From the IMG/VR virus record IMGVR_UViG_2585427783_000007: a DNA stretch of 26,156 nt; one strand, given 5' to 3'. Position numbers and translations under genes: made by a program. Under the pieces are notes generated by a model. That model was not told the DNA's origin. It did not search any database and worked only from the letters and a program-made list of their open reading frames with translations. Each line of letters begins with the position of its first letter. Position 1 is the first letter of the stretch. Positions 1 to 11,497 of this stretch are shown here, one piece after another. This DNA is from a virus. Taxonomy: Duplodnaviria > Heunggongvirae > Uroviricota > Caudoviricetes.

Positions 1-993
1 CTAATCGATGGACAGTTTATGGACACTTTCAGCCAGCGGATTAAAGTTGATCGCGTCCAGTAAAAAGTCCGGCGAAAAATGAGCGTACGTCATTGTTTGC
101 TGAATCGTTGCGTGCCCCAGGATTCGTTGCAACGTAACAATATTTCCGCCATTCATCATAAAGTGTGTGGCAAATGTATGACGCATGACATGCGTAGCCT
201 GCCCCTTCGGCAAATCCGGTTTCACCTCCTGAAGAATCTCCCGGAACTTCAGATAATCAACCTGATACAATAACCCCGTTCGACGGGTTTTAATCAGAGG
301 CACGACCGAATCCGCCACAGGAACCGAACGGGATTTTCCGTTTTTGGTGTTAAAGAACGTCACCCGGTTGCCAACGATATGCTCTCCACGTAGTTCCGAT
401 GCTTCACTCCATCGGGCACCAGTAGAAAGACACAGAATGGCAACACGACGCGCATCACCCTCCAGTCGCTCAAGAAGCCGTTCAATCTCATCATCAGAAA
501 GAAAGGCCATCTCTGTGTTCTGAACTTTCAGTTTTCGTATACCGCGTACAGGGTTCGCGTTGTGAAAGACCTCAGCTTCAATCAGCACCGTGAACATGGT
601 AGACAGTACGCATAAGTCACGATTAATACTGGACGGCATTAATCCGGCCTGTAATTTCTCTGACCGATATTCAAGCATAAATTTTCGCGTCATCTGACTG
701 GCGCGAGGATCTCCCATTTCACGAACAACCTTCCCTAGCCTAACCCTGTAGCTATCCCCGTAAGCCTGATTACGACCATCAAGCATCCACCACGCATCAA
801 GCAGCTCTGATAATCGCCGCTGATCAGCTGGCTTAGCCTGCCATGGCTTGTCATGAAAGTTCTGTAACACATACTTCTCAAACTCCTGAGCCTTTGATTT
901 CAGGGCAAAGATTTTTCGAATCCGCTTTCCTTCCGCCCCCTGCGGTCTGACATCGACCTGATAACGTCCGTCTTTGAGTTGCTTAATCGACAT
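1..993 (-). CDS. int: Tyrosine integrase (P2 Int-like)
   Basis: ORF table entry 1..1008 begins at a TTG; the first ATG is at 993 (MSIKQLKDGRY...) preceded by GGAGG. C-terminal tyrosine-recombinase motifs (VMRHTFATHF, LGHATIQQTMTYAHF) and end-to-end resemblance to P2 Int as I recall it. Confidence 0.9.
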   Translation of the reverse strand: MSIKQLKDGRYQVDVRPQGAEGKRIRKIFALKSKAQEFEKYVLQNFHDKPWQAKPADQRRLSELLDAWWMLDGRNQAYGDSYRVRLGKVVREMGDPRASQMTRKFMLEYRSEKLQAGLMPSSINRDLCVLSTMFTVLIEAEVFHNANPVRGIRKLKVQNTEMAFLSDDEIERLLERLEGDARRVAILCLSTGARWSEASELRGEHIVGNRVTFFNTKNGKSRSVPVADSVVPLIKTRRTGLLYQVDYLKFREILQEVKPDLPKGQATHVMRHTFATHFMMNGGNIVTLQRILGHATIQQTMTYAHFSPDFLLDAINFNPLAESVHKLSID

Positions 994-1062
994 GATTAGC
1001 CCCTCCAACGGATAAATTAACTAAACACTCCTTGCGAGATGTAATTCGCTCAATGTGTAGAG

Positions 1063-1404
1063 TCAGCCAACATTGCGGCCTGATCGGGGTGATTTTTGGG
1101 TAATGCCGATTGAAACCTGATCGCCCTCCGACTGAATAGATCCATCAAGAGAGAGAGCCGGAGCAATCTGCCCGGCGACAGGTAGCGTCTTATCTTTTAT
1201 TAGCCACAGCATGTATTTTTCAAAGCGATCGACTTGCAGAACCGCCTCAACGATTTTTGCTCTAGCGTTCTTTTGCCCCGATTCGTAATTCCTTATGGTT
1301 GCCAAAGACAACCCAGTAATATCCGCAAACTGCTTTTGTGTTAACCCTTCCGCCTTACGTATCTGACGTAACTTTTTTGCGTAGTCTATTGACAAGATAA
1401 CCAT
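1063..1404 (-). CDS. C: Immunity repressor (P2 C-like)
   Basis: ORF table entry 1063..1458 begins at TTG; the ATG at 1404 gives 113 aa (MVILSIDYAKKLRQIRKAEGLTQKQFADITGLS...). HTH-like N-terminus and a GQIAPAL motif that I recall from the P2 C repressor; divergent from the cox-like gene. Confidence 0.75.
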   Translation of the reverse strand: MVILSIDYAKKLRQIRKAEGLTQKQFADITGLSLATIRNYESGQKNARAKIVEAVLQVDRFEKYMLWLIKDKTLPVAGQIAPALSLDGSIQSEGDQVSIGITQKSPRSGRNVG

Positions 1405-1449
1405 TTGAGTATTAACCTCTCGCACAAAGATAACCTTTTGGTTATCTTT
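1389..1449. promoter_or_regulatory. Lysogeny/lysis switch region: TTGACA hexamer plus three AAGATAACC operator half-sites
   Basis: TTGACA at 1389-1394 on the plus strand; AAGATAACC at 1394-1402; perfect palindrome AAAGATAACC-TTTT-GGTTATCTTT at 1426-1449, between the divergent C and cox-like starts. No convincing -10 was identified. Confidence 0.45.
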
Positions 1450-1508
1450 ACAAGCCAAAACAAACCATCACAAGGCGCGACAAGCGCACCAACGCAAGAG
1501 GATAACAA

Positions 1509-2030
1509 ATGCGGGACTTCATTGCCGATAAAGAGTTATCTGACCACCAACCACTTCAGGAAAGTGACGCACTCAGCGGATCCATTGATGCCGCCAACGA
1601 CGACGAGCACGAAGAAAACAAGAAAAAGCGTTCCTACAAAAAAGGAGCGACTTTGCGGCTGGATGGTCCGATCGCCGGGCTTTGCTCTCTGGAAAAAGGC
1701 GCGGCATATATTGGGCTAACAAAATCTGCACTGCGCGTAGCCATTCATCGCGGTCAAATGCCGGGACACAAGACGCGCACAAACCCGGAAGATGAAAACT
1801 CAGACGGAGTATGGTGGTTTAACGCCAAAGAGTGGGACAAGTTGGCTGATGAGCTACCAGAGCACGAGCCCCCAGAATGGCACAACTGGAAAAGTTACTG
1901 GACGTATGACCGCCAGAAAAGGAAGTTCTCTCCAGCTAATAAAGAAGACTGCCAGACCATTAACGGTAAGCGAGTTTATACAGGCAGAAGCTCAAAACTG
2001 GACCAACTCAGAAACAACAGAGGCAACTAA
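1509..2030 (+). CDS. Cox/Apl-like excisionase-regulator with an acidic N-terminal extension (173 aa)
   Basis: ATG at 1509 with AAGAGGA 6 nt upstream; first gene of the rightward operon. Central segment (LTKSALRVAIHRGQMPG...DGVWWFNAKEWDKL) resembles the HTH and wing of P2 Cox as recalled; the first ~60 aa are acidic and have no P2 counterpart. Confidence 0.5.
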   Translation: MRDFIADKELSDHQPLQESDALSGSIDAANDDEHEENKKKRSYKKGATLRLDGPIAGLCSLEKGAAYIGLTKSALRVAIHRGQMPGHKTRTNPEDENSDGVWWFNAKEWDKLADELPEHEPPEWHNWKSYWTYDRQKRKFSPANKEDCQTINGKRVYTGRSSKLDQLRNNRGN

Positions 2031-2034
2031 TCGT

Positions 2035-2457
2035 ATGAAAACAAACACGTCAGATTTCACAATAACTATTTCAAAAAATGACCAAGCATTAATTGATAAC
2101 CTGAAATACCTTGCGGAAAAACATAATAACGGACGAATTGCAATTAATTTACGACACATCACAGGAGTAACAATTGTAACCAGTTACTGGCATCTATATC
2201 TAATCGCTAAATCAGTACTTGAAAACAAAGATTCTGTTGTCAATGGAAGAGATATAGATACTCTTCCTGCACAAATCAAACCGATAGCCTATCAATTGCG
2301 TAATCGTTTTAAAAATGAAGGTGGGATTATATTTGACTTTCCCGCAGCTGTAGCCGTGAGCTTCTCTCGGGGGGATATACTTCACTCATTTCGTTTTGCT
2401 CTATCAGGTGACGAGACATTATGGCAGCTAGAAGATGCCGGGAGCAGCCCGGCATAA
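2035..2457 (+). CDS. Hypothetical protein (140 aa), AT-rich cargo gene
   Basis: ATG at 2035, 5 nt after the cox-like stop, in frame within table ORF 1792..2457. The first ~300 nt look about one-third GC by eye, against roughly half for the window. No family recognised. Confidence 0.5.
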   Translation: MKTNTSDFTITISKNDQALIDNLKYLAEKHNNGRIAINLRHITGVTIVTSYWHLYLIAKSVLENKDSVVNGRDIDTLPAQIKPIAYQLRNRFKNEGGIIFDFPAAVAVSFSRGDILHSFRFALSGDETLWQLEDAGSSPA

Positions 2458-2463
2458 ATCAAA

Positions 2464-2655
2464 TTAAAAATCAACCAGTTGTGTGACAGGTGGGTATTTA
2501 CGCTGAATTTTGTCAGTTACTAACGCCAGTAATATATGAATCTCTGTGTTTAATGCGTCTTTATCACCCGTCGTTTTTACCCTGGGAGGGTTAATGTTAT
2601 CCAGAGCAGCACTAAGTTCACTCAACAAATTAACAACTTTTTTATCTTCTGACAT
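2464..2655 (-). CDS. Hypothetical small protein (63 aa), convergent on the preceding gene
   Basis: ATG at 2655 with AAGAGG 5-6 nt upstream on the minus strand; AT-rich; stop codons of the two convergent genes are 6 bp apart. Confidence 0.5.
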   Translation of the reverse strand: MSEDKKVVNLLSELSAALDNINPPRVKTTGDKDALNTEIHILLALVTDKIQRKYPPVTQLVDF

Positions 2656-2792
2656 GAAAACCTCTTAACAATTTAATTAAACATAAGCCAGGACCTGAAC
2701 CGGCCAGTCCAAGTCCTAGACACACAAAAAAAATACCACAAATCAATACAAGGTGACACGAGTACACCTTACCGAAGGTACAGAGTTTTAAT

Positions 2793-3143
2793 ATGAAACT
2801 ACAGCGCAATTCTTCACAGCAGCGCTTCCGCAACGGTGCGGAACGCCATGCTAACCGTTTCGCTACCAGTGCATCACGTAGCAACTCTCGCTACAGCCTG
2901 AGCGAAACACACGCAACGCCGGATGGCTACCCAGTAAAACAAATTGGTGAACACACTTGGCTGATTGAAAAAGCAGGAATCGTGGTTCACAGATGCCAGC
3001 GCAACCCATTTACCGGAAACCGCATTTTTGCACTGAGCAACGGCGACAATCAGTTCGGGCAGGATTTCACATTATACGAAGCACTTCGCACGGTTGATCG
3101 TCTGCTTCACGGGCAAAGTTTTATTAAACAGGCTGATTTATAA
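2793..3143 (+). CDS. Hypothetical early protein (116 aa)
   Basis: Table ORF; weak RBS; low-complexity basic N-terminus, so the true start may lie further in. Confidence 0.45.
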   Translation: MKLQRNSSQQRFRNGAERHANRFATSASRSNSRYSLSETHATPDGYPVKQIGEHTWLIEKAGIVVHRCQRNPFTGNRIFALSNGDNQFGQDFTLYEALRTVDRLLHGQSFIKQADL

Positions 3144-3153
3144 CAGGTGCTTT

Positions 3154-3432
3154 ATGACCAAAGAGCATGCACAAGGTGTATTTATCCGTTTTATTGATTT
3201 TCGCGGTGAACTGTTATTACGCGCATCAGCCATTGACGGAGTTGTTCCATCCGAAAAAAATGCAGCTACTTACGTTTATCTGAACGGCACGCGCCTGACC
3301 GTAGAACTTCCGTACCAGACTGTACACGAAATCATTAGCGAAGCGGAAAAAGCACGTAAGACTAATGGCGATGAACCCTATATCGAAATTATTTGTATGG
3401 ATTCAGAAGCAGAAATTCAGAAAGCAGATTAA
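3154..3432 (+). CDS. Hypothetical early protein (92 aa)
   Basis: Internal ATG at 3154 (MTKEHAQGVF...) of table ORF 3094..3432, preceded by AGGTG; tightly packed after the previous gene. Confidence 0.55.
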   Translation: MTKEHAQGVFIRFIDFRGELLLRASAIDGVVPSEKNAATYVYLNGTRLTVELPYQTVHEIISEAEKARKTNGDEPYIEIICMDSEAEIQKAD

Positions 3433-3443
3433 AGGGCGTTGCG

Positions 3444-3686
3444 ATGGGCAAAGAATATAAAACTCTCATTAACAAAGCACTTGAGCGTTTTTATTTTCGC
3501 TTAAGTGCATCAGGCGCTCATGCTGAACGTGCAGCCCGTGACTCATTGACCAGGGCAATCCGGAGTCTGTATGACGTGGCTTTTTACGCTGATGATCTGG
3601 ATGCACTTAACGAACTTTCCGAGCTGATCTGTGCCGCAGAATGCGGGGAACATATTGAACCGTATAAGCTGGGGAATATCGCATGA
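3444..3686 (+). CDS. Hypothetical early protein (80 aa)
   Basis: Internal ATG at 3444 (MGKEYKTLINK...) of table ORF 3393..3686, AAGGG upstream. Confidence 0.55.
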   Translation: MGKEYKTLINKALERFYFRLSASGAHAERAARDSLTRAIRSLYDVAFYADDLDALNELSELICAAECGEHIEPYKLGNIA

Positions 3687-3796
3687 GTATATTTATGTCA
3701 TGGATTGTTCTGATTATTTCAGTGGTCTGCGCAATTGGCATTGTGCGAATTATTCATTCAGTAAAAAAGATTGAACGTTTTTTCACTGGTGAATAA
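3683..3796 (+). CDS. Small hydrophobic peptide (37 aa, single predicted transmembrane segment)
   Basis: ATG at 3683 overlaps the upstream TGA (ATGA coupling); translation MSIFMSWIVLIISVVCAIGIVRIIHSVKKIERFFTGE. Too short for the ORF table. Confidence 0.35.
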   Translation: MSIFMSWIVLIISVVCAIGIVRIIHSVKKIERFFTGE

Positions 3797-3889
3797 CGAT
3801 ACAAATAAAACATCAAATTAAATAAGAAAACGTGAAAACCATCCGTATTAACGGAGGTATTCGCACACGCAAATAACGGAGATACAAAA

Positions 3890-4300
3890 ATGCACGCAAA
3901 AGAAGAAGGTATCATCAGAGCACTGAAAGAAATTTCAAAGACAGAAAACGAAGTAGCGAAAAAAGCCATAGCAAATAATCATATGGACGTCGCAACCCAC
4001 ACACTGATAGTCGCAAGAGTCACGGCAGAAGCAGCCGAAATTATCGCAAAACAGGATGCTGAACTGGCGGTTCTCAGAACACAACCAGTCACCGGACTGG
4101 ATTTGTCTAACACCGGACGCCTTATTTACACAATTGGCTCAGAGCCACAGCGATACACCATTATCGCCGGATTACAGGACAAATACCTGATCACTCCTTA
4201 CCCCATAAGGGAATCAGCGCTTCTGACAAATCTCCACCTGATAGAGCGCTCTCAGGTCGCATTCATTGATGACGCCCAACACACCGTATTTAACGCATAG
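3890..4300 (+). CDS. Hypothetical early protein (136 aa)
   Basis: ATG at 3890 with GGAG 9 nt upstream; table ORF. Confidence 0.6.
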   Translation: MHAKEEGIIRALKEISKTENEVAKKAIANNHMDVATHTLIVARVTAEAAEIIAKQDAELAVLRTQPVTGLDLSNTGRLIYTIGSEPQRYTIIAGLQDKYLITPYPIRESALLTNLHLIERSQVAFIDDAQHTVFNA

Positions 4301-4329
4301 GGTTACTGGACAAAAAAAGAGGGGGGGCA

Positions 4330-4533
4330 ATGGCAATTAAGCATTTTCCCGTCGTTCGCTTTACCTCCAGAGGGCACGAATACGAGGTCGACGAACGCCT
4401 GATTACCACTATCGACAAACATCGTTCGGAAAAGGATGCACACCACATCTACCTCACTGACGGCACTTACTTCTGCGCCACCAACGTGGCGCGAGTAAAT
4501 CTTATCCGACAGGTACAGGAGCCACGCAGATGA
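4330..4533 (+). CDS. Hypothetical early protein (67 aa)
   Basis: ATG at 4330 preceded by an A7-GA-G7 tract acting as RBS; stop overlaps the next start. Confidence 0.55.
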   Translation: MAIKHFPVVRFTSRGHEYEVDERLITTIDKHRSEKDAHHIYLTDGTYFCATNVARVNLIRQVQEPRR

Positions 4534-5092: not shown

Positions 5093-5209
5093 GAAACCAG
5101 AACATGCACACACAAAAAAACCGCTTGCCATGCCGCAATCAGTCAGGTTACATTTCCGCTGCACCTCATAAAACGGGTGCCGGGATTGGAACCCCGCTGA
5201 CTATGCACG

Positions 5210-5235
5210 CGCACAACCGCGCCAGCGGTTTTTTT
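5210..5235 (+). terminator. Hairpin plus T7 run (weak intrinsic-terminator-like element)
   Basis: CGCACAA-CCGC-GCCA-GCGG-TTTTTTT-GTGCG: inner 4-bp GC stem followed by seven T; outer 7-bp arms CGCACAA/TTGTGCG. Confidence 0.3.
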
Positions 5236-5290
5236 GTGCGTACCGTATCGCCACGTCTTTTTCGCGTCAGAATTATGGTGGGGCGTATGG

Positions 5291-5309
5291 GGCCGACTTC
5301 GGTCGGGCC
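5291..5309 (+). other. Stable GC-rich hairpin with a UUCG-type tetraloop
   Basis: GGCCGAC-TTCG-GTCGGGCC, within a 322-bp GC-rich non-coding block. Confidence 0.35.
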
Positions 5310-5346
5310 GGATTCGTGCGTAGCCGGTAGTTCCAACCCTGTACGT

Positions 5347-5387
5347 CTCACCACCCCGAGCTTGGAACCTCTGGATGGTGAGTTTTT
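5347..5387 (+). terminator. Stem (CTCACCA/TGGTGAG) with large loop followed by T5 run
   Basis: 7-bp arms at 5347-5353 and 5376-5382, then TTTTT at 5383-5387, just upstream of the RBS of the 5415 gene. Confidence 0.3.
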
Positions 5388-5414
5388 AAAACTTACTACG
5401 TACGAGGCCACCCC

Positions 5415-5645
5415 ATGGCAAACCGCAAACAACAGCGCGCATACGCTGCGCGTCGTCACATCCAGACTGAAATCAACCGCAGACTTTTCCGCGCATTCCG
5501 CGTCGCGCATATCATGCACATCAATATGCTGCATGAACGCAGTCACGCACTATCGAACAGCTATTCCGCCTCTGTTTTCAGCTATCTGGCAGATGATCTG
5601 CGCGAGCTTCAAAAGCTCATCCAGCAGCAAAACAAACTCCATTAA
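5415..5645 (+). CDS. Hypothetical small basic protein (76 aa)
   Basis: ATG at 5415 with GAGG 9 nt upstream; table ORF; arginine-rich N-terminus. Confidence 0.5.
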   Translation: MANRKQQRAYAARRHIQTEINRRLFRAFRVAHIMHINMLHERSHALSNSYSASVFSYLADDLRELQKLIQQQNKLH

Positions 5646-6089: not shown

Positions 6090-8912
6090 ATGACGGCAGA
6101 GTACCTCAGGGACTGGCAACAACCGCGCCACGCAGTGGGGCGTGAAGGAACGGGGATCCCCGCTCCTGAATCCGCGCTTTCCTCCTGGCTGGATGCCTAC
6201 CGGGCAGAGAACGAGCGCCGCCAGGAAATGGCTGATGCGGCGTTCTCAGCCACGCCGCTGGGCAACCTGATTAATAAAAGCCTGGACGCACAGGAAAAAC
6301 AGGACAAAACCATCACACTGGCAGGAGACGCCAGAAAACAGGCACGTGGCGCGGTGGATGAAGCCATGGCCTCGCTGCGCCTGCTGCCGTCCTATCTGCG
6401 CGATCCGCTTATTCGCCACCTCTCCTTCCTGCGCAAAAAACAGGAAGCCGATCGCCGGAAAGGCAAAAAGAGCTGGCAGGCGGAACGCTATGCACGCGGA
6501 ACCCTGCGCAAAATATTCGAACGTCTGGATAGCACTGACGGACGCTGGCTGACACCGGGTTATCGCTCCCTTGCCGGACGCGAACGCCTGGACGATTTGC
6601 TTTACCTGCCGCAGCTCAACAAACACCAGATACAGACGCTGGCCACCATGACGGCGGCGATGTTCAGCAGCACCTTCGAAAAACTCTGCGATGGCTTTGG
6701 CGCGACCGATGGCGAGCTGACCATGGATGTAACCCTGAAGGCGTATCAGATGCTGGCCCGCATGGCGTTACACCTGCACGCCATGCCTCCACATTATGAC
6801 GCACTGACAACAGACAAAGACCGGAGGAACGAACCGGACACGGAGCTGCTGCCGGGCGCAATCCTTCGCCTGACCTGTGCGGAATGGTGGAAACGCAAAC
6901 TGTGGCTGTTACGTTGCGAGTGGAGAGAAGAACAACTCCGCGCCGCCTGTCTGGTTTCCAGAAAAACATCACCCTATCTGAGCCAGGACGCGTTAAGCGA
7001 GTTTCGCGCACAGCGCGAGAAAACACGCGATTTCCTGAAAAGTTTCATGCTGGAAAATGAAGACGGGTTCACGATTGATCTCGAGACAGTGTATTACGCG
7101 GGAGTAAGTAACCCGGTTCACCGTAAGGCAGAAATGATGGCCACCATGAAGGGACTGGAACTTCTGGCCGAAGCCCGTGGCGACAAAGCGGTGTTTCTGA
7201 CTGTCACCTGCCCGTCAAAATACCACGCCACAACGGAGAACGGTCATCCGAATCCCAAATGGAACGGGGCCACAATGCGCGACTCCAGCGATTACCTGGT
7301 TAACACGTTTTTTGCGGCGGTCCGCAAAAAACTGAACCGCGACGGCCTGCGCTGGTATGGCATCCGCACGGTGGAGCCTCATCATGACGGCACCGTGCAC
7401 TGGCATATGATGGTCTTTGCACATCCGGAAGAAATCGACACCATTGTGTCCCATACCCGCGATATTGCCATTCAGGAAGACCGCCACGAGCTGGGCAATG
7501 ATATTACTCCGCGCTTTAAGGTGGAGTATGTCGACGGCTCAAAAGGCACGCCAACCAGCTACATCGCCACCTACATCGGAAAGAACCTGGACAGCCGCGC
7601 CGTGGATGGCATCGACCCGAAAACGGGCAAGCCACGCATGGACCACGAAACCGGAAAATCAATGGCCGAGAGCGTGGAGCGCGCCATCGGCTGGGCGCGC
7701 CTTCACCGGGTCCGTCAGTTCCAGTTCTTTGGCATCCCCTCCCGTCAGGTGTGGCGTGAACTGCGCCGCCTTGCCAGCCAGATGGCACGCAATCCGGAAG
7801 GCCCGCAACGGCTGAAAGATGATGCAATGGATGCGGTACTCGCTGCCGCCGATGCCGGGTGTTTTGCCACCTACATTGAAAAACAGGGTGGCGTGCTTGT
7901 TCCACGCAAGGACTACCTGATTCGCACCGCCTACGACCTCGCAGATGAGCTGAACGATTACGGCGAACAGAGCGTACAGATTTACGGGATCTGGTCACCA
8001 CTCATCGGGGAATCCTCCCGTGTGTGCACGCATCCGGATAACTGGAAGCTGGTAAGACGTAAACCGGAAGCGGAAGACAGCGCCCGCGAAAATGGTTTTG
8101 ACCTTCAGGACGGCCCTGCCGCCCCTTGGACTCGTGGCAATAACTGTCCCCGTGTACAGGAAACGGACAACAACGGGACAGAACAGCCGGAAGAACGGCC
8201 AGCACCGTGGCCGCAGCTTCCTGACGGCGTTGACGTGAACGAATGGATGCGCTCACTGAAACGGCACGAACGCCGGGCGCTGATGCGTTCGCTGCGTGAC
8301 AAACAGGCAAAAAACAGCAGTGATGAAATGCAGAGCTGGACACAGAGCCGCAAACAGCAGCGGCCTTTGCCTGATAACCACGAATTACTCGCTAAAGAAT
8401 GGCGGGAATCTGCCGAATCTCTCGGCCTGCATATCGGTGAACAGCAGATGCAGCACCTGTTACGGGGCGGCAGCCTGTACGTTGACGGCAGCATCATTGC
8501 ACCGCAGGGATTTGAAATTGTACGCAAACCGGATACCCGCCCGGACAGCCGAATCACGCAGCTCTGGCAGCGCCTGAGCCGTAATCACGGCGTAAGCAGC
8601 ACGGAGATCCGCCATAACCCGGTCGCCAGCTATCTGGAACAGCTGGGGGCATCAGACCCCGAAGCCGCCGCACGTCTGGCATCCACACTTCAGCAGGACC
8701 AGAACACCATGACCCCCCCCGTTACCGTGCTTTCTGACATGCTGCGCGCCATCCGCGACGCAGAGCACGCACAGAGAATCAGTGAAACCACTGAACGTGC
8801 CCGCCGCAAAGCAGACCTGCTGCGGGGTGGCCTGACCAGTGGAAACAAAAAACAGACAGAAACGGGATTCACAAATCCCGTAAATGAGCAAAAAACGCGC
8901 CGCGATATATGA
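6090..8912 (+). CDS. A: Rolling-circle replication initiator (P2 gpA-like), 940 aa with extended C-terminus
   Basis: HUH motif in EPHHDGTVHWHMMVF and paired-tyrosine motif YIATYIGKN; N-terminal and core resemblance to P2 gpA as recalled; about 180 aa longer than the ~760-aa P2 protein. Confidence 0.9.
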   Translation: MTAEYLRDWQQPRHAVGREGTGIPAPESALSSWLDAYRAENERRQEMADAAFSATPLGNLINKSLDAQEKQDKTITLAGDARKQARGAVDEAMASLRLLPSYLRDPLIRHLSFLRKKQEADRRKGKKSWQAERYARGTLRKIFERLDSTDGRWLTPGYRSLAGRERLDDLLYLPQLNKHQIQTLATMTAAMFSSTFEKLCDGFGATDGELTMDVTLKAYQMLARMALHLHAMPPHYDALTTDKDRRNEPDTELLPGAILRLTCAEWWKRKLWLLRCEWREEQLRAACLVSRKTSPYLSQDALSEFRAQREKTRDFLKSFMLENEDGFTIDLETVYYAGVSNPVHRKAEMMATMKGLELLAEARGDKAVFLTVTCPSKYHATTENGHPNPKWNGATMRDSSDYLVNTFFAAVRKKLNRDGLRWYGIRTVEPHHDGTVHWHMMVFAHPEEIDTIVSHTRDIAIQEDRHELGNDITPRFKVEYVDGSKGTPTSYIATYIGKNLDSRAVDGIDPKTGKPRMDHETGKSMAESVERAIGWARLHRVRQFQFFGIPSRQVWRELRRLASQMARNPEGPQRLKDDAMDAVLAAADAGCFATYIEKQGGVLVPRKDYLIRTAYDLADELNDYGEQSVQIYGIWSPLIGESSRVCTHPDNWKLVRRKPEAEDSARENGFDLQDGPAAPWTRGNNCPRVQETDNNGTEQPEERPAPWPQLPDGVDVNEWMRSLKRHERRALMRSLRDKQAKNSSDEMQSWTQSRKQQRPLPDNHELLAKEWRESAESLGLHIGEQQMQHLLRGGSLYVDGSIIAPQGFEIVRKPDTRPDSRITQLWQRLSRNHGVSSTEIRHNPVASYLEQLGASDPEAAARLASTLQQDQNTMTPPVTVLSDMLRAIRDAEHAQRISETTERARRKADLLRGGLTSGNKKQTETGFTNPVNEQKTRRDI

Positions 8913-8988: not shown

Positions 8989-9948
8989 ATGAAAATTTGT
9001 ATCGACGACGGCTCCACCAACATCAAGCTGGCATGGACTGAGAATGGCGAACGCCGCAACGCCATCAGCCCGAACAGCTTCAAGTCGGAATGGTCTGCGC
9101 CGTTCGGTGGCATGCAGCCCGCGAACTACATGCTTGATGGCGTGCGCTATGGTTTTGATCCGGTTAGCGATCGCTTTGTCCAGACGACCGACACGCAATA
9201 CCAGTACAGCGATGTGAATGTAATCGCCATTCATCACGCGCTGGTCAAATCAGGCATCACGCCACAGGAGGTGGATGTGGTTGTCACCCTGCCACTGAGC
9301 GAGTATTTCGACACAAACGCACAGCCGGACATGGCCAACATCAACCGCAAAAAAGCGAACGTTATGCGCCCGGTGGAGTACCAGAACGGCGAAGCATTCA
9401 CTATCCGTAACGTGCGGGTTATGCCTGAATCCATTCCGGCTGGCTTTAAAGCACTGGCTGACATGAGTCCGTTTGAATCCCTGCTGATTGTGGATTTAGG
9501 CGGAACCACGCTGGATGTGGCAAAGGTTCAGGGGCAACTGGCAGGTATCAGCCAGGTGTTTTGCGATCCACACGTAGGCGTCTCCCTGATGGCCGGTGCC
9601 GTGCTGTCGGTGATGGCCGCTAACGGTATGCGTACCAGTCACCACATCGCCAATACCATTATCGAACATCGCCATGATGAAGCCTGGTTGCGCCAACACA
9701 TCCACAATGACGCGCATTACGCCAGCCTGATGGCGGTTATTCGTGAAAAGGAAGAAACACTGAAACAACGCGTGATCCGCGCGCTGGCGGGTTTTTCGGG
9801 TTACGGGCGGGTGATGGTTGTCGGTGGCGGGGCGGAGATTGTGGCACCCGCTATCCGCGAAGCCTGCGGAGTTAATGCGACTTTCATCGCGGACGAGGTG
9901 CCACAGTTTGCTCTGGTTAATGGGCTGTACGCAATGGACAAGGAGTAA
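8989..9948 (+). CDS. parM: ParM/StbA-family actin-like segregation ATPase
   Basis: 319 aa; MKICIDDGSTNIKLAW..., ...LLIVDLGGTTLDV..., ...VMVVGGGAEI... are actin/ASKHA phosphate and adenosine motifs; co-linear resemblance over the whole length to plasmid R1 ParM as I recall it. AAGGA RBS 8 nt upstream. Confidence 0.85.
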   Translation: MKICIDDGSTNIKLAWTENGERRNAISPNSFKSEWSAPFGGMQPANYMLDGVRYGFDPVSDRFVQTTDTQYQYSDVNVIAIHHALVKSGITPQEVDVVVTLPLSEYFDTNAQPDMANINRKKANVMRPVEYQNGEAFTIRNVRVMPESIPAGFKALADMSPFESLLIVDLGGTTLDVAKVQGQLAGISQVFCDPHVGVSLMAGAVLSVMAANGMRTSHHIANTIIEHRHDEAWLRQHIHNDAHYASLMAVIREKEETLKQRVIRALAGFSGYGRVMVVGGGAEIVAPAIREACGVNATFIADEVPQFALVNGLYAMDKE

Positions 9949-9952
9949 ACCA

Positions 9953-10267
9953 ATGACGACACCAACCAGACGGATAAGTTTCTATCTGAAGCCAGTCGCC
10001 GTCAATAGTGAACGGGAGGCGTGTAATTACCTCGACAGCCTGCCAGCCTCTGAACGCAGCCGCGCGCAACGCGCGGCCTTTCTGGCCGGGCTGGCACTCA
10101 TAAAACGCGATCCTGCATTTGCCTATTGGTTGGCCGAATGGCCGGAAGAAGGAGCTGCGCCAGCCAAGAATAATATTCAGAGTAAATATGCCAGCACACC
10201 TGCCACCGGAAGCAATCACAGCACTAGCGAGATAAGAAAGAACATTCAGTCATTTTTCCCAGAGTGA
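9953..10267 (+). CDS. parR: ParR-like centromere-binding adaptor (104 aa)
   Basis: ATG at 9953 with AGGAG inside the parM 3' end; N-terminal RRISFYLKP...LDSLPASERSRAQRAAFLAGLAL matches the pattern of the R1 ParR ribbon-helix-helix region as recalled; follows parM as in R1. Confidence 0.7.
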   Translation: MTTPTRRISFYLKPVAVNSEREACNYLDSLPASERSRAQRAAFLAGLALIKRDPAFAYWLAEWPEEGAAPAKNNIQSKYASTPATGSNHSTSEIRKNIQSFFPE

Positions 10268-10286
10268 AAACAGGAGAGGAGCATCT

Positions 10287-10721
10287 ATGGCAACTATCCC
10301 CAAAAAATGGTTACAACGCAAAATTGCAGACCTTGAATCGTGTCGTGAAGACATCCCGTTTGGCCTTGATGAAAACGATCACAATATGTTAATCGCACTG
10401 AAAATCGCACTCACATCGCTGGAAGCAGAGCCAGTTATGTTCTGTATATCAGGACAAAATGTAGATTCAGAAGAACATGTATCAACCAGCAAAGCGGTTG
10501 TTGATGCCTGGGTTGAAGAATGGAATCAGGTTGACGGAAGTCCAGGCGAACCACTGTACAAAACTATGCCACTCTACTATCACGCTGCCTTGCCAGCGCC
10601 GGTAGTGCCGGATGAAATGTATTGGCAGGATGCGCCAGTTGAAGGCAGCAGCAAAGCGGCTGCATACGCTACAGGCTGGAACGCCTGCCGCGCCGCTATG
10701 CTTCATGGGAAAGGAGAGTGA
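10287..10721 (+). CDS. Hypothetical acidic protein (144 aa)
   Basis: ATG at 10287 with AGGAGAGGAG RBS; same operon as parMR; no family recognised. Confidence 0.6.
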   Translation: MATIPKKWLQRKIADLESCREDIPFGLDENDHNMLIALKIALTSLEAEPVMFCISGQNVDSEEHVSTSKAVVDAWVEEWNQVDGSPGEPLYKTMPLYYHAALPAPVVPDEMYWQDAPVEGSSKAAAYATGWNACRAAMLHGKGE

Positions 10722-10722
10722 T

Positions 10723-10986
10723 ATGGCAACTTTAACAAAAAAAGAACGGGCATGGTTGAACGAATTACAGGACGTTCTTGATCGCTGCCCATCACCGAAA
10801 AAAATTGGTTTTTACACCATTGGCGATAAAAGCATTTACCTGTATGACCTGCGCCGCATGGATGAAATCATGGAGGCTCTTGATAATCGTTCTTCGATGG
10901 ATTGGTGTGTTGCTGTCCATGATATGAATGCAGGGTTTGATGAAAAGATTTTGTTCCCCTCATCAGTTGAAAGCACAGCAGGATAA
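10723..10986 (+). CDS. Hypothetical acidic protein (87 aa)
   Basis: ATG at 10723, 1 nt after the upstream stop, with AAGGAG 6 nt upstream; last gene before a terminator. Confidence 0.6.
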   Translation: MATLTKKERAWLNELQDVLDRCPSPKKIGFYTIGDKSIYLYDLRRMDEIMEALDNRSSMDWCVAVHDMNAGFDEKILFPSSVESTAG

Positions 10987-11021
10987 GGACCCAGCAAATA
11001 TACACAACCTATAAAACACTA

Positions 11022-11048
11022 AAGCGCCTCAGGGGCGCTTTTTGTTTG
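11022..11048 (+). terminator. Intrinsic terminator ending the parM-parR-unknown operon
   Basis: AAGCGCC-TCAGG-GGCGCTT (7-bp stem) followed by TTTGTTTG, 35 bp after the last stop codon. Confidence 0.55.
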
Positions 11049-11073
11049 CACAAAAGTGCACAAATTTGCACAA
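11047..11073. repeat. Three TGCACAA direct repeats at exact 10-bp phasing
   Basis: TGCACAA at 11047, 11057 and 11067, one helical turn apart, followed by a T7 run; likely a protein-binding array in the cos-proximal region. Confidence 0.4.
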
Positions 11074-11319
11074 TTTTTTTGAACGACTTTTTACCCTTCC
11101 GGCCCGCATGGCGGCTGGATCCGTCAAGGATCCGTGCGTGCACAAAAAAACGCGTTTTTTCTGCGCGCAGGTGACGGGGGAACAGCCCGCGTTTCAGGGG
11201 GTAAATAGCACTCCCTGAACGATGTCGCAGAGATACAACAGAATGGCTGTATTTCTCACGCTGAGCGTGAAAAAGACGTGAGGGCTTTTGATTTGATGGG
11301 GTGGCAGATAAGGCCGTCA

Positions 11320-11350
11320 AAATCGCACTGAGGCGGCGAAAACATGCAGT
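11320..11350. other. Candidate cos (cohesive-end) site
   Basis: GAGGCGGCGAAAACATGCA, about 150 bp from the Q stop, partially resembles the P2/186 cohesive-end sequence as I recall it (roughly 13 of 19 positions). The position between the A-side cargo and Q matches P2. Low confidence; memory-based. Confidence 0.3.
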
Positions 11351-11497
11351 CAGCGCAGTGGGATTGCGTAAGAGTCTGACCGTCGATGATGGCAATAAGC
11401 AGGAAAGCGTCGTGAAATTATCTGATTGATACAGGAGCTGGAGAGTCGGGGCATAAATTTTTTATGCCCCGGCGAAGCAGCAGACAAGCGAAGCGCG

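Follow-up and report, generated by a model that had tools for sequence, protein, structure and literature searches.

Why would a temperate phage keep, within the operon that it reads on infection or induction, a gene that faces the oncoming transcription? This question is raised by positions 2035-2790 of a 26,156-nucleotide stretch of Caudoviricetes DNA (IMG/VR record IMGVR_UViG_2585427783_000007; the whole stretch is hereafter called the window), where two genes, orf140 (140 amino acids, aa) and orf63 (63 aa), converge just downstream of a cox-like gene. An original prediction, made from the letters of the window, had described this block as an AT-rich island and a horizontally acquired moron, possibly an exclusion or toxin-regulator pair. 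Our follow-up comparisons lead us to read it as a moron-like accessory cassette of P2-like immunity regions, in which two real genes would be wired for expression in opposite states of the phage and made mutually exclusive by convergent transcription. We offer this reading tentatively, while regarding it as the most probable of those considered below.

The window is a P2-like prophage of the P88-like kind (Peduoviridae, with Xuanwuvirus among its nearest classified relatives). It is identical to prophage Phi1 of Escherichia coli EC958, a strain of the pandemic ST131 clone in which Phi1 adjoins dmsA, and over the region it matches Escherichia phages vB_EcoM-569R5 and 705R2, as well as one ST131 prophage record, at 100% identity. 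The guanine-cytosine (GC) content of 2035-2790 is 38.1%, compared with 52.9% for the whole window, and 0.24% of all 756-bp segments are equally low; the first 300 nt have 32.7%, matching the predicted "about one-third". The flanking genes are less extreme, with 50% GC in cox and 49% in the DUF4761 gene against 38% in the block, and the profile of GC at third codon positions follows the same pattern (0.29 in orf140 and 0.31 in orf63, compared with 0.54 in cox and 0.48-0.54 across the flanking genes), and the AT-rich island was borne out. Shuffling the region 5000 times gave 7 cases with an open reading frame (ORF) reaching 140 codons, and one case in which a second ORF of at least 63 codons was present as well.

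The gene layout likewise agreed with the prediction that orf140 continues the early operon, since its ATG at 2035 follows the cox TAA (2028-2030) after 4 nt, and that orf63 is read toward it (2655-2464) from its own strong ribosome-binding site, AAGAGG, 5 nt before the ATG. The two stop codons are separated by a 6-bp spacer (2458-2463), which had been taken to leave no room for a terminator. This holds for the gap itself, but a terminator-like hairpin sits inside orf140 instead. No plus-strand terminator-like site was found in 2035-2792, in keeping with the claim that early transcription would run antisense through the small gene.

Relatives of the pair were sought among 5.8 billion proteins with a word index, among 1.84 billion representatives with HMMER in an exhaustive search, and by looking up contigs. 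The word-indexed search returned near-identical E. coli copies only. The HMMER search gave one true distant relative of the orf140 protein, P0014 from Salmonella enterica (138 aa, 34% identity, E = 2.7e-7); a further candidate from the same representatives, the 1073-aa repeat protein P0015, was discarded, its match to one short repeat being put down to chance. The P0014 contig (L012) is a P2-like prophage with the order integrase, repressor, Cox, a 58-aa membrane ORF, P0014 and a convergent 62-aa gene, whose product is 40% identical to that of orf63 and whose end overlaps P0014 by 4 nt. Together with the pairs on contigs L014, L026 and L041 (Table 1), there are four further versions besides that of the window, at 21-40% identity. 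Every orf140 homologue faces a convergent small gene of 60-62 aa (70 aa in L014) with 24-40% identity and the conserved motifs M[NS]ED[EK]K..LL, AL and KYP. The 3' ends, 6 bp apart in the window, overlap by 4 nt in L012, L026 and L041 and by 31 nt in L014, where loss of the stop has extended the small gene to 70 aa (1019-1231). In all versions the pair lies immediately downstream of the cox/excisionase gene or one gene further, and all have a low GC content (39-42%). Degraded copies aside, no locus with one gene of the pair alone was found. In L014 (229-633) and L041 (4685-5080) a gene of 131-134 aa stands between cox and the cassette; the N-terminus of its product weakly resembles that of the GPO capsid-scaffold protease (PF05929, E = 0.008, below threshold).

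The substitutions that separate these versions indicate that both genes are real, protein-coding and under purifying selection. For each gene, the proportion of non-synonymous differences (pN, 0.36-0.54) lies below that of synonymous differences (pS, 0.66-0.82), with synonymous sites saturated; the corresponding rate ratio (dN/dS) is 0.2-0.45 for diverged pairs where unsaturated and 0.25-0.58 for the close L012/L014 pair. Within E. coli, dN/dS is limited by too few sites (six in orf140, four in orf63). We conclude that the two products found two orphan protein families, so far seen only in P2-like prophages (E. coli, Salmonella and three further contigs), and the co-occurrence of their genes indicates a conserved unit, a long-standing companion of P2-like immunity regions.

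The block is nevertheless accessory cargo and not a core replication function, because phage P88 joins cox directly to the DUF4761 gene and E. coli strain PRO_A-1504 (locus L004) lacks exactly the block (2028-2714). The P88 cox gene (1578-2003) lies 37 nt ahead of the DUF4761 gene (from 2041), and similarity between P88 and the window resumes only at window position 2786. L004 is collinear with the window over 1001-2027 and 2715-3400, and it carries the same integrase, repressor and cox; since it retains the candidate promoter of orf63 (2730-2740), the PRO_A-1504 locus looks like a deletion derivative. The 687-bp deletion takes the cox stop with it, so that cox reads through into the former orf63 promoter region and is extended to 185 aa (L004 2483-3040). 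A second natural deletion (2131-2625) was found in L029, a frameshift in an A run truncates orf140 while leaving orf63 intact in L028, and one E. coli genome keeps just the first 153 bp of the block. Other Xuanwuvirus relatives carry different small cargo at the same spot, namely a 68-aa gene with or without two 35-aa ORFs. The block is present in 271-272 of 5426 complete E. coli genomes, always at 95% identity or more and with many of the strains labelled O25b:H4-ST131; the neighbouring early genes are found in 1398 of these genomes and this repressor-cox type in 324. A distant blastn search of the E. coli genomes found no diverged copies, two scans of genome contig collections gave no further copies, and a metagenome scan gave near-identical E. 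coli copies only.

These distributions also bear on two opposite ways of dismissing the block, namely as a conserved replication function, such as a homologue of the P2 B-type helicase loader, or as AT-rich filler with chance ORFs. Its place in the early operon, upstream of the replication gene, would suit the former. However, the block is missing from P88 and from most P88-like prophages, it has been deleted from otherwise intact ones, and neither protein matches a replication family; the original prediction had named universal conservation and such a homologue as the finding that would speak against cargo, and the presence/absence data show a patchy distribution instead. Chance ORFs are opposed by pN below pS and by their rarity in the shuffles. 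Conservation and distribution thus leave hardly any probability for either explanation. The prediction of a horizontally acquired moron was upheld as to accessory status and deviating composition, but not as a recent one-off acquisition, given that the versions have diverged to 21-40% identity and are all low in GC.

Comparison of the cassettes with their surroundings revealed that the two have separate histories. Relative to the window, L041 shares 63% identity in Cox but only 21% in the large protein, and L012 shares 28% in Cox and 33% in the large protein, so the histories of cassette and cox are decoupled. In addition, the L012 (765-bp) and L026 (707-bp) cassettes are bracketed by a direct repeat of 31-36 nt, which is made up of the ribosome-binding site and initial seven codons, at one end those of the large gene and at the other those of the following early gene, and therefore offers a simple recombination route for gain and loss. 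No direct repeat was found around the window copy. From these comparisons, the cassette appears to move as a unit. This bears on the view that two unrelated cargo genes merely travel together, with orf63 a single-gene moron, orf140 a separate early gene and their layout accidental. All five known versions could share one ancestral block, orf63 has every part of an independent unit, and in E. coli there are indications that orf140 is under relaxed selection and becoming a pseudogene. Yet the two genes, their 3' ends abutting or overlapping, have remained paired despite divergence to 21-40% identity and exchange between different cox backgrounds, the repeats of L012 and L026 enclose both genes as one, and single-gene loci were found only as degraded copies. 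We consider an accidental association quite unlikely.

The organization of orf63 suggests a self-contained leftward transcription unit, made up of a candidate extended -10 promoter (P63), a 5' hairpin, a strong Shine-Dalgarno sequence, the ORF and a 3' hairpin (Table 1). The 5' hairpin belongs to the leftward transcript because it is stable on the minus-strand RNA only, the plus-strand complement being unstable (z -0.18). A stem at the same position stands out in L012 (z -2.9) and L041 (z -6.3), while those of L014 and L026 are weaker and not above shuffles. The 3' hairpin is encoded in the last codons and stop of orf140, that is, in the poorly conserved C-terminal tail of the large gene. Equivalent hairpins follow the small genes of L012 (z -3.8), L026 (z -4.8, then UUCCUUUU) and L041 (z -2.5), with a good U tract in L026 only; in L014 a stable hairpin is absent after the new small-gene stop, the fold having covered that position and not the equivalent one. 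The window hairpin has a weak U tract and was uncalled by the terminator scan. No Rfam match was found in 1000-4500. Between the -10 element and the 5' hairpin lies an A8/T8 run, whose length shifts the promoter-hairpin distance. It could modulate expression or be simply a slippage-prone tract; the EC958 genome paper (PMC4134206) names this run, between EC958_1049 and EC958_1050, among its homopolymer discrepancies.

In the early/repressor promoter region (1389-1450) we identified three exact copies of AAGATAACC, at 1394, 1427 and 1440 (minus strand), two of which together form the palindrome AAGATAACCTTTTGGTTATCTT; presumably, these repeats are operators of the repressor or of Cox. The same region holds a TTGACA at 1389-1394, followed by TATTAA at a spacing of only 15 nt. 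The cassette contains none of the AAGATAACC copies, the three repeats at 1394-1448 being the only ones.

From the architecture and its conservation we infer the timing of expression, the interference and the protein functions as follows. Since orf140 starts 4 nt after cox and lacks its own promoter, its product would be expected solely once the early promoter Pe becomes active, during infection or after induction. The orf63 gene, in a cassette without repressor-operator repeats, is expected to be on in the lysogen, so that with Pe repressed orf63 would be made alone. The replication gene at 6090 and the early genes ahead of it can be reached only through the cassette, so transcription from Pe must cross orf63 and its candidate promoter head-on, with overlap of the two mRNAs at their 3' ends. 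On firing of Pe, orf140 would thus appear and orf63 would be shut off by transcriptional interference and antisense pairing, and the pair would mark opposite states of the phage. On the basis of this wiring and of the strict co-inheritance, the orf63 protein may act in the prophage state, where it would most plausibly interfere with a competing phage or satellite or with a host target, and orf140 may be its early-lytic counterpart, relieving or replacing the orf63 activity for the phage's own growth. The guess of interference with competing phages or satellites seems the most plausible one because the integrase-to-primase interval of P2-like prophages is reported to contain 8% of their defence systems (PMC13586616). 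Taken in full, the proposal is of a two-state prophage module, in which a lysogen-expressed acidic protein of about 60 aa, directed against competitors, satellites or a host target, would be cancelled by its convergent early-lytic partner and switched by head-on transcription and 3'-overlapping mRNAs, with no regulator protein. In this complete form, the model is possible but unlikely.

The same convergent layout could instead serve the lysis-lysogeny decision, much as pE of phage 186 or PRE of phage lambda would by analogy. Leftward transcription from P63 would then run antisense to orf140, cox and possibly the repressor and integrase genes, opposing Pe, and the proteins would modulate Cox, the repressor or excision. 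The cassette always lies just downstream of cox/excisionase and beside the repressor, and its E. coli copies go with a single C-cox immunity type (324 genomes for the type, 271-272 for the cassette). CII is the second early gene of 186, the position that orf140 takes here, and the weak U tract of the window 3' hairpin would allow read-through antisense to cox. However, the PHROGs and Pfam scans, in which the repressor and Cox were detected, assigned neither protein to a helix-turn-helix (HTH) or CII-type family, and both are neutral to acidic, unlike typical small DNA binders. P63, with its good extended -10, looks constitutive and not activator-dependent, the hairpin and U tract that directly follow the small gene of L026 speak for a transcript that normally ends at that point, and there are prophages with this immunity region but no cassette. 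We therefore regard a role in the decision as somewhat unlikely.

To look for functions, both proteins and all family members were scanned against Pfam, PHROGs, NCBIfam and PADLOC, with PADLOC cut-offs of E up to 1 for the window pair and up to 0.1 for the Salmonella and L026 pairs; only sub-threshold noise was obtained, and neither window protein had a match in these collections or among sequences in the PDB. A DUF1408 match (E = 0.022) was rejected, as it appeared in only one of four members. Profile searches of PDB sequences gave nothing for the large family and E of about 0.6-0.8 at best for the small one. Both proteins are predicted to be soluble and neutral to acidic without a hydrophobic segment, the isoelectric point for orf63 being 4.6-5.6, and the orf140 protein contains an internal repeat, two copies of a strand-helix unit. 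AlphaFold2 models were of low confidence, with a predicted local distance difference test score of 42.6 from the single sequence and 51.2 from a five-sequence alignment, and Foldseek gave no match against the PDB below E = 1 for the low-confidence model.

Data on the lysogen are available from transposon-directed insertion-site sequencing of EC958, in which EC958_1050, assigned to orf63 by its coordinates and the homopolymer note in PMC4134206, had 19 insertion sites in 173 bp (index 0.11) and was scored non-essential (Phan 2013, PMC3789825 Table S1); it also showed no serum phenotype (PMC3789825 Table S4). orf140 was unannotated in the 2013 EC958 draft and hence has no transposon value in those data (PMC3789825). 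By protein and locus accessions, the EC958 genome paper alone was found in the literature (PMC4134206). These data are relevant to a toxin-regulator or abortive-infection pair, in which orf140 would be a toxic early protein and orf63 its constitutive neutraliser against a leaky Pe, or with the roles reversed. A small and a larger gene that always occur together, their place in AT-rich accessory prophage DNA and their joint loss in two independent deletions would all suit such a pair. On the other hand, the genes are convergent and do not form a co-transcribed autoregulated operon, and known toxin or antitoxin families are not matched. EC958_1050 tolerates insertions and a natural orf140 frameshift exists alongside an intact orf63, so that a lysogen does not depend on either gene for surviving the other. 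Toxicity confined to the time when Pe is on is compatible with the lysogen data. A classical toxin-antitoxin or addiction pair is not supported, and the broader explanation appears doubtful.

Several points weigh against the opposite-state cassette that we favour. P63 is a sequence motif, and a strict two-hexamer promoter scan did not call it; because the 3' hairpin is without a good U tract, leftward transcription in the window may continue past it toward cox and the repressor gene. Of the six orf140 polymorphisms within E. coli, four are non-synonymous, including A18P at an otherwise invariant position, which hints at relaxed selection on this gene. Co-occurrence in five versions could reflect block inheritance and not functional coupling. 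Finally, neither homology nor a usable fold was found for either protein (Foldseek returned nothing), so that a defence or self-immunity role is a guess by analogy, and neither has a PADLOC match.

Table 1. Coordinates of the cassette elements, diverged versions of the pair, and neighbouring genes. Positions refer to the window.
Feature	Position	Strand	Remarks
orf140, second gene of the early (Pe) operon, 140 aa	2035-2457	+	Founder of an orphan protein family
orf63, small soluble mildly acidic protein, 63 aa	2464-2655	-	Convergent with orf140; equals EC958_1050
Accessory block, presence/absence limits, 687 bp	2028-2714		BLASTN against L004 (E. coli PRO_A-1504)
Candidate promoter P63, extended -10 TGTGgTATTTT	2730-2740	-	TGTGnTATnTT is the sole invariant block in five aligned upstream regions
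A8/T8 homopolymer	2726-2733		Between -10 element and 5' hairpin; run length 6-8 among near-identical loci
5' hairpin of predicted orf63 mRNA	2688-2719	-	14 bp, several G.U; -21.7 kcal/mol, z -3.0
orf63 Shine-Dalgarno AAGAGG	2661-2666	-	5 nt before ATG at 2655; read from sequence
3' hairpin, terminator-like or 3' stabiliser	2435-2455	-	GC-rich, 8 bp, stem AUGCCGGG/CCCGGCAU; directly after orf63 stop
L014 version			P0016 with 70-aa partner; small-gene stop lost
L026 version			136-aa and 60-aa pair
L041 version			146-aa and 62-aa pair
Integrase	1-1008	-	
HTH repressor	1063-1404/1458	-	
Long cox-like gene, 173 aa	1509-2030	+	Left flank of block; Pfam Phage_Cox 31.2 bits, residues 58-129; phrog_23196 E 1e-116
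DUF4761 early gene	2793-3143	+	Right flank of block, directly after cox in P88; Pfam DUF4761 E 2e-68; P88 annotation
Replication endonuclease	6090-8912		After small early genes; head and tail genes beyond

Comparison with known systems places the cassette closest to phage morons, independent promoter-gene-terminator units found between genes of phage operons (HK97/lambda-type phages). Like them, it lies between genes that are adjacent in relatives (cox and the DUF4761 gene in P88, with L004 collinear but for 2028-2714), differs in composition from its flanks (GC 38% vs 49-50%), is dispensable, and has a small gene with a candidate promoter and a terminator-like hairpin. Unlike them, it comprises two genes, of which orf140 is plugged into the host operon and is not autonomous, while the autonomous gene points against the operon that reads through it; moreover, the pair is conserved as a unit in five diverged versions. 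The cassette is a variant of moron-type phage cargo, with a mechanism that we propose from architecture only. As with the P2 cargo genes old, tin and fun/Z and with the defence hotspots described in P2 and P4 (Rousset 2022, PMC9122126; PMC13586616), it is accessory cargo of P2-like prophages, and it lies in the integrase-to-primase interval. It is, however, outside the two main hotspots (gpA-Q and the tail/Z region) and similar to no PADLOC model.

Temperate phages also use convergent promoters as switches, as in pR/pL interference and CII-pE of phage 186 and PR/PRE of phage lambda. The cassette resembles these in having a leftward candidate promoter within the rightward early operon, just past the second gene, and in the resulting head-on transcription. 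In contrast to them, its leftward transcript would encode a conserved protein of its own and, at a length of about 290 nt, seems to stop at a hairpin; CII-like and HTH proteins were not detected, and the promoter looks activator-independent. With BstA/aba and P22 sieB/esc the cassette would share its proposed logic, entirely by inference, namely a prophage-state activity that is switched off or evaded for lytic growth; sequence or structure similarity is absent. The self-immunity of BstA lies in a DNA element (aba; PMC8585504). That of sieB is an in-frame product, esc, whereas the candidate here is a separate convergent gene. As for type II toxin-antitoxin systems, the likeness is that of a small two-gene accessory unit on a mobile element, in contrast to which the genes converge in all five versions and neither is essential in the lysogen. 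Against type II families, nothing rose above the curated cut-offs in Pfam and NCBIfam, PADLOC gave no match, and the best match among PDB sequences had E = 0.64.

The surroundings of the cassette yielded further observations. The cox-like protein is unusually long, with an acidic N-terminal extension ahead of its Cox domain (residues 58-129); its relatives have 192 aa in L041 (63% identity) and 135 aa in L012. The Salmonella prophage L012 carries a second convergent pair right after the cassette (6766-7804), with genes of 259 and 103 aa that overlap by 53 nt; no significant family match was obtained, the only PADLOC match being a weak one of the 259-aa protein to REase_II (E = 0.016). Leftward genes within the early operon may be a recurrent feature of this group of phages. 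Immediately past the cassette, the insertion sequence IS1 breaks the DUF4761-DUF4754 early region in several E. coli strains (p4A, NR363, NR341 and NR319; H56-H59). Further along, 5098-5645 holds an ash-family pseudogene remnant and a 76-aa "derepression protein" annotated in related records, names that recall functions of satellite P4. The main P2 cargo hotspot, between the replication and portal genes (8989-11400), is occupied by a ParM-like segregation protein, a "plasmid partitioning/stability" protein, a hypothetical protein and a DUF4760 protein (EC958 annotation).

For the biology of P2-like prophages, both proteins are orphans, unannotated in the libraries searched, despite the presence of the cassette in 271-272 of 5426 complete E. 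coli genomes, and the conserved convergent design offers a testable case of a prophage-state gene inside an operon that is read through it. If the small protein acts in defence, against satellites or on the host, it would be a new family for the integrase-to-primase region, which is far less studied than the two main hotspots. If no phenotype were found, the cassette would still be a well-delimited example of modular cargo exchange at gene-start repeats. Should the two-state module prove true, it would represent two new protein families and a new design of self-immunity.

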